NCBI RefSeq assembly: GCF_050320075.1
Contig: NZ_CP190018.1
Reading direction: 5' to 3' (one strand)
DNA: 64,000 bases
From: Escherichia coli
GTDB lineage: Bacteria; Pseudomonadota; Gammaproteobacteria; Enterobacterales; Enterobacteriaceae
Part shown: positions 63,219-63,328 of the stretch, one piece after another
How the letters are laid out: the number at the start of each line of letters is the position of its first letter
Numbering within the stretch: the stretch's first letter is position 1
Position numbers and translations under genes: made by a program
Notes under the pieces: model-generated
What the model was told of the DNA's origin: nothing
The model's database searches: none
Seen by the model: only the letters and a program-made list of their open reading frames with translations

Positions 63219-63328
63219 GTCATTCTGATTAATTTTCGAATTGTCGTTTTTGTGATCGTTATCTCGACATTTAAAAACAAATAATTTCATTATATTTTGA
63301 AATCGAAAACAAACGACAGGATATGAAA

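Follow-up and report, generated by a model that had tools for sequence, protein, structure and literature searches.

Which bases in front of gatY would the repressor GatR recognise? GatR represses the gat operon in E. coli (PMC5850726), and in the passage of PMC7972205 that cites Nolle 2017 the Salmonella gat promoters are said to be repressed by it. Repression of gat by GatR as such has been known since 1996; the question raised by the present locus is one of base-level positions. The stretch of DNA analysed here, called the window, comprises 64,000 nucleotides of an E. coli chromosome. A preliminary description of it had pointed to two inverted arms just upstream of gatY, TGTCGTTTTTGT at 63242-63253 and ACAAACGACA at 63309-63318, and had proposed that they are the half-sites of a GatR operator pair. 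The positions and the gap of 55 nt between the arms are correct, and a TCGAA element does stand beside each of them (63236-63240 and 63303-63307). The arms also lie, as described, between the IS200 end and the Shine-Dalgarno sequence of gatY, and they bracket the predicted promoter, with the CRP-like site and the −35/−10 pair inside (Table 1).

The gene order is yegT (minus strand), fbaB (plus strand, ending at 62390), IS200 and gatY (plus strand). Seven genomes that are 100% identical over 62380-63400 continue with gatYZABCD, followed by an intact 257-residue gatR of the DeoR/GlpR family. The encoded protein has an HTH_DeoR (PF08220) and a DeoRC (PF00455) domain, and in the identical genome its gene is located downstream of gatD, beyond the window. 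The tnpA gene is annotated as IS200/IS605 in the identical genomes, and the IS200 site is occupied in CFT073 as well. K-12, which is without IS200, reads ...CCGTTTTTTTG|CCTTTCAC... across the junction, which gives the approximate bounds of the element listed in Table 1 and means that all DNA from 63216 on is native gat upstream sequence. An origin of the repeats in IS200 was rejected, since K-12 and about 5000 other E. coli lacking the element have both arms.

Table 1. Features of the fbaB-gatY region. Positions refer to the window; numbering with a plus sign in the last column is relative to a predicted transcription start near 63300.
Feature	Position	Strand	Description
IS200 copy	62505..63215 (approx.)	+	tnpA at 62648-63105; inserted after the T-run of the fbaB terminator, ahead of the gat promoter; not part of the operator
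Box U3, CCTGTCAT	63216..63223	+	fits CT[TG]TC[AG]; K-12 has CCTTTCAC; possible distal GatR box, weakest candidate
Box U2, TTTTCGAA	63233..63240	+	predicted box; contains the left TCGAA element; 63232-63242 ranked ninth in the window by the other-genera matrix
Box U1, TTGTCGTTT	63241..63249	+	predicted box; core of the left arm; abuts and overlaps the outer CRP flank
CRP-like site, TGTGA-TCGTTA-TCTCG	63251..63266		centre 63258.5; 8 of 10 consensus positions
Sigma-70 promoter, TCGACA-18 nt-CATTAT	63264..63293	+	from promoter scan; −10 at 63288-63293
Box D2, GTTTTCGATT	63301..63310	-	predicted box; contains the right TCGAA element; about +2 to +11; matrix rank 18 in the window
Box D1, CTGTCGTTT	63311..63319	-	predicted box; core of the right arm; about +12 to +20, ends in the Shine-Dalgarno sequence
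Shine-Dalgarno of gatY, AGGA	63318..63321	+	7 nt upstream of the annotated ATG (63329)
gatY, tagatose-bisphosphate aldolase subunit	63329..64000	+	annotation of identical genome and translation; extends past the window end

We first consider the symmetry of the two arms. The exactly complementary core has 8 bp, TGTCGTTT (63242-63249) and AAACGACA (63311-63318), with 61 nt in between, and a second inverted pair, 90% complementary, involves the TCGAA elements (TTTTCGAATT, 63233-63242, and AAATCGAAAA, 63300-63309). The sub-motifs follow the order B-A on one side and B'-A' on the other, and there is thus no single long palindrome. In 2000 dinucleotide-preserving shuffles of the AT-rich spacer (63216-63328), a perfect inverted repeat of at least 8 bp was found in 38% of the cases, and the 8-bp repeat was therefore rejected as a meaningful statistic. 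A single palindromic operator composed of two half-sites was also rejected, on account of the 61-nt gap, the chance-level repeat and the fact that the symmetry is not maintained. The density of TKTCG cores is a different matter: five of them fall within 90 bp (63234-63318) against a background of 0.39 per 90 bp in the window, and this is the only spot in the 64 kb with at least four, for a pattern that was picked post hoc.

The symmetry also fails among strains. The spacer is almost invariant across the genus Escherichia, so that conservation within the genus is uninformative, and where the arms do change, they change independently, without covariation (E1V33, E. whittamii, AF22 and strain 1613). 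The left arm has TGTTG in E1V33, while the right one has CGATA in E. whittamii and ATGACA in AF22 and AR_0017. The change to TGTTG abolishes the TCG core of U1; ATGACA in D1 corresponds to TGTCA on the other strand, and the E. coli box variants stay within TC[AG]. The independent changes, taken together with the chance-level repeat, favour a reading of the arms as individual boxes that belong to two clusters, and the description of them as inverted-repeat half-sites is thus abandoned.

For the cross-genus comparison, gat loci were gathered via GatR orthologues and exact-protein look-ups across Enterobacteriaceae. The gatYZABCDR loci obtained are those of Enterobacter (L012), Kosakonia (L013), Phytobacter (L014), Superficieibacter (L015) and Klebsiella sp. 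RIT-PI-d (L017), as well as that of a lineage designated L025; the GatR orthologues of the five genera have 72-75% identity. Two lineages are nearer to E. coli, namely L019 (GatR 89% identical) and L016 (84%), which have the fbaB-gatY synteny in common. Two loci were left out, L020 (GCA_047199105.1) with its frameshifts and P0043 of Citrobacter amalonaticus. In L020 the genes of the locus are split into many short open reading frames, and the assembly is probably an uncorrected long-read one. When genome contigs were searched with GatY, the only matches were to Escherichia, Buttiauxella and distant aldolases, and a homologue search aimed at Salmonella GatR gave no match labelled Salmonella.

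The genomic position of gat differs between these lineages. In Enterobacter, Kosakonia, Phytobacter and L025 it lies between garD and rsmI, where K-12 (L018) has the aga cluster, and the locus of P0066, too, is of this garD-gat-rsmI type. In Superficieibacter and Klebsiella sp. RIT-PI-d gat abuts rsmI with different upstream neighbours, while in E. coli and its two nearest lineages it adjoins fbaB.

For each of the five other genera, the promoters of gatY and of gatR (ten regions in all) were subjected to an unbiased 6-mer count. The top 6-mer is CTTTCG/CGAAAG, seen 27 times versus 0.87 expected (31-fold) and present in 10 of 10 regions, and TTTCGA and TTCGAA are the next in rank. The layout in front of gatY in these genera consists of one to four downstream-pointing CTTTC(G/A) boxes, a CRP-like site, TATAnT, the palindrome CTTTCG-N11-CGAAAG, and GTTTCGGAGG overlapping the Shine-Dalgarno sequence. 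Directly before gatY, the loci of these genera and of L025 have G(G/A)TTTCGGAGG, in which a TTTCG box is fused with the Shine-Dalgarno sequence, an element that is missing in E. coli. Judged against the cross-genus consensus, the TCGAA elements flanking the arms are predicted boxes too, and are closer to it than the arms themselves.

The gatY promoter of E. coli can be aligned with those of the other genera along its whole length, and in the two-clade alignment U1, U2 and D1 fall on boxes at matching offsets from the conserved CRP site. Every genus has a box at the U2 offset, −21.5 from the CRP centre here and −22.5 in most others, and the sequence aligned with U2 in the other genera is CTTTCGAA, at about −22. 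U1 is at −13.5 in both clades; Enterobacter, Kosakonia and Phytobacter have CTTTCATTT or TTTTCATTT at the aligned place, L016 and L019 have [AG]TTCATTT, and a separate reading of L025 gives CTTTCATTT directly 5' of the CRP-like site, in the same layout. On the downstream side, the homologue of D1 in the other genera is the palindrome's right arm, and AAnCGAnAG is invariant in 9 of 9 aligned sequences from seven lineages. The counterpart of D2 in L016 and L019 is TCTTTCGAAT, at equal offset. For U3 the aligned identity to the other genera is only 0.35, and those genera carry one to three extra upstream CTTTCR boxes.

The identity to the five other genera is highest for D1 (0.89), followed by D2 (0.62), U1 (0.56) and U2 (0.53). 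The corresponding values are 0.60-0.64 for the CRP pentamers, 0.23 for the N6 between them, and 0.23-0.42 when this N6 is taken together with the promoter spacers. With a matrix built from the other genera only, U2 takes rank 9 and D2 rank 18 among about 128,000 window positions, the two matches being in inverted orientation and within the 113-bp spacer. The two arms reach only ranks 266 and 664 with the same matrix, because they have G (TGTCG) where the other genera have T. It is important to point out that homology links the E. coli promoter to those from which the motif was derived. The matrix result thus does not count as independent evidence, and what would argue for selection is only the contrast in conservation between boxes and spacers.

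Some observations count against reading these elements as GatR boxes, namely the G at position 3 of the two arms with the poor matrix ranks, and the geometry of the downstream cluster, which is a tandem repeat in E. coli versus an inverted repeat in the other genera.

In the window as a whole, TGTCGTTT occurs more often than expected (7 copies against 2.2, a number reached in 0 of 100 shuffles), the copies outside the gat locus being at 6968, 13492, 39031, 39246 and 50842. Those at 39031 and 39246, like the top matrix match at 38067, are within one open reading frame of 1264 residues and were set aside as coding sequence.

The left TCGAA is a minority allele, the corresponding sequences being TTTTCATATTG in K-12 and TTTTCACATTG in CFT073. 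An identity of at least 99% to the 115-bp stretch with the U2 allele of this strain was seen in only about 55 of 5093 E. coli records. The three alleles of U2, TTTTCATA in K-12, TTTTCACA in CFT073 and TTTTCGAA here, all fit TTTTC[AG]. The rare allele TTTTCGAA is nearer to the cross-genus CTTTCGAA than the common TTTTCATA is.

We now turn our attention to the promoter between the two clusters. A homologue of the CRP-like site, with a perfect TCACA half, is found at the equivalent place in all the other genera, and the E. coli −10 element aligns with their conserved TATAnT. The CRP centre is 29.5 bp upstream of the −10 element. We infer a gatY start site near 63300, which would place this centre at about −41.5, U2 and U1 at about −67 to −51, and D2 and D1 at about +2 to +20. 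The predicted CRP binding would then be of a class-II-like arrangement, its exact position depending on that of the start site. A fifth TGTCG core, on the minus strand (63265-63269, AATGTCGAGA), shares bases with the right half of the CRP-like site and with the predicted −35 element; L016 and L019 read AATGTCGTGA at this place and K-12 reads TATCG. It could be another box, or merely the CRP half-site. A by-eye check of the arm positions for Cra or ArcA sites, made against remembered consensus sequences, gave no convincing match.

On the basis of these comparisons, the arms are probably two of four, possibly five, predicted GatR boxes placed on both sides of a presumably CRP-dependent promoter. 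What stands of the proposed operator pair is that both arms are positionally homologous to the CTTTC(G/A) boxes of the other genera; what falls is that they are half-sites of one operator. The predicted core is T-[T/G]-T-C-[G/A], and in most cases a T- or A-rich stretch comes after it. The putative upstream cluster would be made up of U2 and U1, perhaps with U3, pointing towards gatY and ending against the CRP site. In the opposite orientation, D2 and D1 would form a downstream cluster covering the predicted start and the early leader up to the Shine-Dalgarno sequence.

Another option considered was that only the downstream cluster (D2 and D1) is the GatR operator and that the left arm is a T-rich CRP flank or an UP-like element, in which case no pair would bracket the promoter. 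D1 is conserved far more than U1 (0.89 versus 0.56), the final three bases of the left 12-mer are the first three of TGTGA, the change to TGTTG at U1 is tolerated in E1V33, and Superficieibacter is without a box at the U1 position. However, a TTTC[AG] core is present 12.5-13.5 bp from the CRP centre in four of the five genera and another one at about −22 in all five, L025 has the two upstream boxes too, and of the core at the U1 position only the last two to three bases fall within the 22-bp CRP consensus. The CTTTCG repeats further upstream in Enterobacter, Kosakonia and Phytobacter cannot be a CRP flank, and several boxes are found in gatR promoters as well. We therefore consider this option unlikely, although U1 itself could be conserved in part as an A/T-rich CRP flank.

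The reading with boxes on both sides of the promoter can be compared with what is found at the gatR promoter and with related regulators. The gatR promoter of E. coli, which is not homologous to that of gatY, has CCCTTCGTTTACA, aligning with CCTTCGATTACA of the other genera. While the gatR promoters of the latter have two or three boxes (CTTTCG or CTTTCA), that of E. coli has one, a variant (CTTCG). These putative boxes are consistent with autoregulation of gatR. In Salmonella Typhimurium, whose repressor and pathway are orthologous to those of E. coli, GatR and CRP reportedly bind the gat promoters and the repressor is said to be autoregulated. The Salmonella gat cluster differs from the E. 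coli one by extra genes and internal promoters, a layout also seen in Buttiauxella.

The closest parallel is provided by AgaR, a paralogue of GatR (38% identical, with a similar helix-turn-helix), the consensus of which is WRMMTTTCRTTTYRTTTY.... The K-12 aga promoters that it controls are packed with CTTTCG(TTT) boxes in both orientations. A search of gat/aga-type promoters, as the preliminary description had suggested, finds recurring CTTTCG boxes in front of both gatY and gatR in other genera, as well as in the K-12 aga promoters. Like gat, aga (agaR-kbaZ and agaS operators; Ray & Larson 2004, cited in PMC12226905 and PMC4694137) combines a DeoR-family repressor with a PTS operon of the tagatose-bisphosphate pathway, and several boxes of the CTTTC(G/A)TTT type lie on either side of a CRP-associated promoter; in the kbaZ promoter, as in that of gatY, a box stands just 5' of the TGTGA half of a CRP-like site. 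There are also differences. Relative to CRP and the −10 element, the boxes are placed differently in aga and in gat, and the E. coli gat boxes deviate from the CTTTCG of aga at position 1 or 3 (TTTTCG, TTGTCG, CTGTCG). Moreover, the AgaR sites have been footprinted, whereas the gat boxes are predicted.

A second parallel is found in E. coli Nissle 1917, where the predicted TagR operators tagO1 and tagO2 are of the CTTTCAAAATGAAAG type (PMC12226905). As proposed for gat, a DeoR-family regulator and a tagatose cluster are involved, the motif is CTTTCA...TGAAAG, one operator is placed over the start site, and a CRP site is adjacent (PMC12226905). The TagR operators, which are also only predicted, are adjacent 19-mers, while the gat boxes form clusters on both sides of the promoter. 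The proposed arrangement at gatY is ordinary and expected, at most a new predicted member of the AgaR-like operator type, and the understanding of DeoR-type regulation is unchanged by it.

The resemblance to aga bears on the option that the inverted repeat is an AT-rich coincidence, with neither arm binding a protein and the conservation reflecting a general promoter or leader constraint. In its favour are the repeats of equal or greater length in 38% of the shuffles, the near-invariance of the whole Escherichia spacer, which makes conservation there uninformative, and the arms that do not covary. Such an explanation does not account for the 31-fold enrichment of the hexamer in ten promoter regions of other genera, which include the non-homologous gatR promoters, nor for the sharp contrast in conservation between boxes and spacers, nor for the fact that the motif is the same as in promoters under the paralogous repressor AgaR. 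We regard it as very unlikely.

A role of the right arm at the RNA level, in the gatY leader (translation initiation, a 5' hairpin or an sRNA target), is still more improbable: the arm does lie in the predicted 5' UTR against the Shine-Dalgarno sequence, CTTTCG-N11-CGAAAG could fold into a 6-bp hairpin in the other genera, and RIL-seq lists gatY as a target of a candidate sRNA (PMC8175672), but folding of the E. coli leader is not significant (z = −0.79; a leader hairpin was rejected), the hairpin is not conserved, since E. coli retains only a decayed left arm of the palindrome, the same box occurs 5' of the start site and in gatR promoters, outside this mRNA, and the box is retained while the Shine-Dalgarno context varies by clade (AGGA versus GGAGG).

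Returning to GatR boxes on both sides of the promoter, the following mechanism can be proposed. Without inducer, oligomeric GatR would occupy both clusters. At the downstream cluster it would block RNA polymerase at the start site, at the level of initiation or escape, and at the upstream cluster, which overlaps the outer CRP flank, it would hinder CRP-dependent activation. One GatR oligomer may bridge the two clusters, and the clusters may cooperate. A galactitol-derived phosphate ester would free GatR, after which CRP-cAMP would activate the class-II-like promoter. It is important to note that in this scheme GatR binding itself, the precise point of transcription initiation, any cooperation or looping of the clusters and the nature of the inducer are inferred, while the sequences, their position and conservation across genera, the CRP and −10 matches and the intact DeoR-family gatR of the matching genome are observed.

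DeoR and GlpR, which control the deo and glp operons, are oligomeric repressors with several operators around the promoter, and act by looping. The DeoR operators are 16-bp palindromes hundreds of base pairs apart. The gat boxes differ from these in being about 9 bp long, in clusters about 70 bp apart, and a gat loop is hypothetical. The distance between the U1 and D1 cores is 70 bp in E. coli versus 67 bp in the other genera (ca 6.4-6.7 helical turns); this spacing is neither fixed nor an integral number of turns, which weakens the idea of looping. The looping between the arms that the preliminary description had read from their spacing is purely conjectural.

We have also considered whether the deviating boxes of Escherichia could reflect insulation, that is, a drift of the GatR boxes away from CTTTCG with a parallel change of the recognition helix, keeping the gat and aga pairs free of cross-talk. 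The drift consists of T to G at position 3 in U1 and D1 (and in U3 here), and of T for C at position 1 in U2 and D2. The recognition helix of GatR is SEATIR versus SEVTIR, that of AgaR being STVTIR. E. coli has both regulons, and several other genera have gat at the site of aga in E. coli. However, L016 and L019, with the E. coli-type helix, retain CTTTCG at D2, which weakens this reading, and we think it quite improbable.

If the two-sided arrangement of GatR boxes were confirmed, it would provide base-level coordinates of the GatR operators of the E. coli gat operon. GatR, AgaR and TagR would then share one type of box, which is relevant to galactitol- or tagatose-inducible systems free of cross-talk. 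The operon undergoes repeated adaptive mutations during gut colonisation, with loss of gatR and inactivation of gat (PMC5850726), and operator coordinates would help in reading natural variation of the promoter, of which the alleles and a promoter deletion found here are examples. The deletion is in E. coli 11899A_LBHALD (L024), where a deletion of about 63286-63375 takes away the −10 element, both downstream boxes, the Shine-Dalgarno sequence and the first gatY codons. The annotated gatY is shortened, and the strain looks like a natural gat promoter knockout.

Finally, a few observations concern the region between fbaB and gatY. The IS200 is positioned at the exact end of the fbaB terminator T-run, one base 5' of box U3. 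In CFT073 (L026) this site is occupied by an IS200C of identical orientation, with 30 substitutions over the 711-bp element, and a query with fbaB-IS200-gatY (62380-63400) gave a match covering at least 80% in only 19 of 5426 genomes. The insertion at this site is either old or marks a hotspot. In K-12, the stretch from the fbaB stop to the terminator contains an additional REP-like block (L001, 9380-9500, against 62391-62470 of the window), which is missing in this strain.
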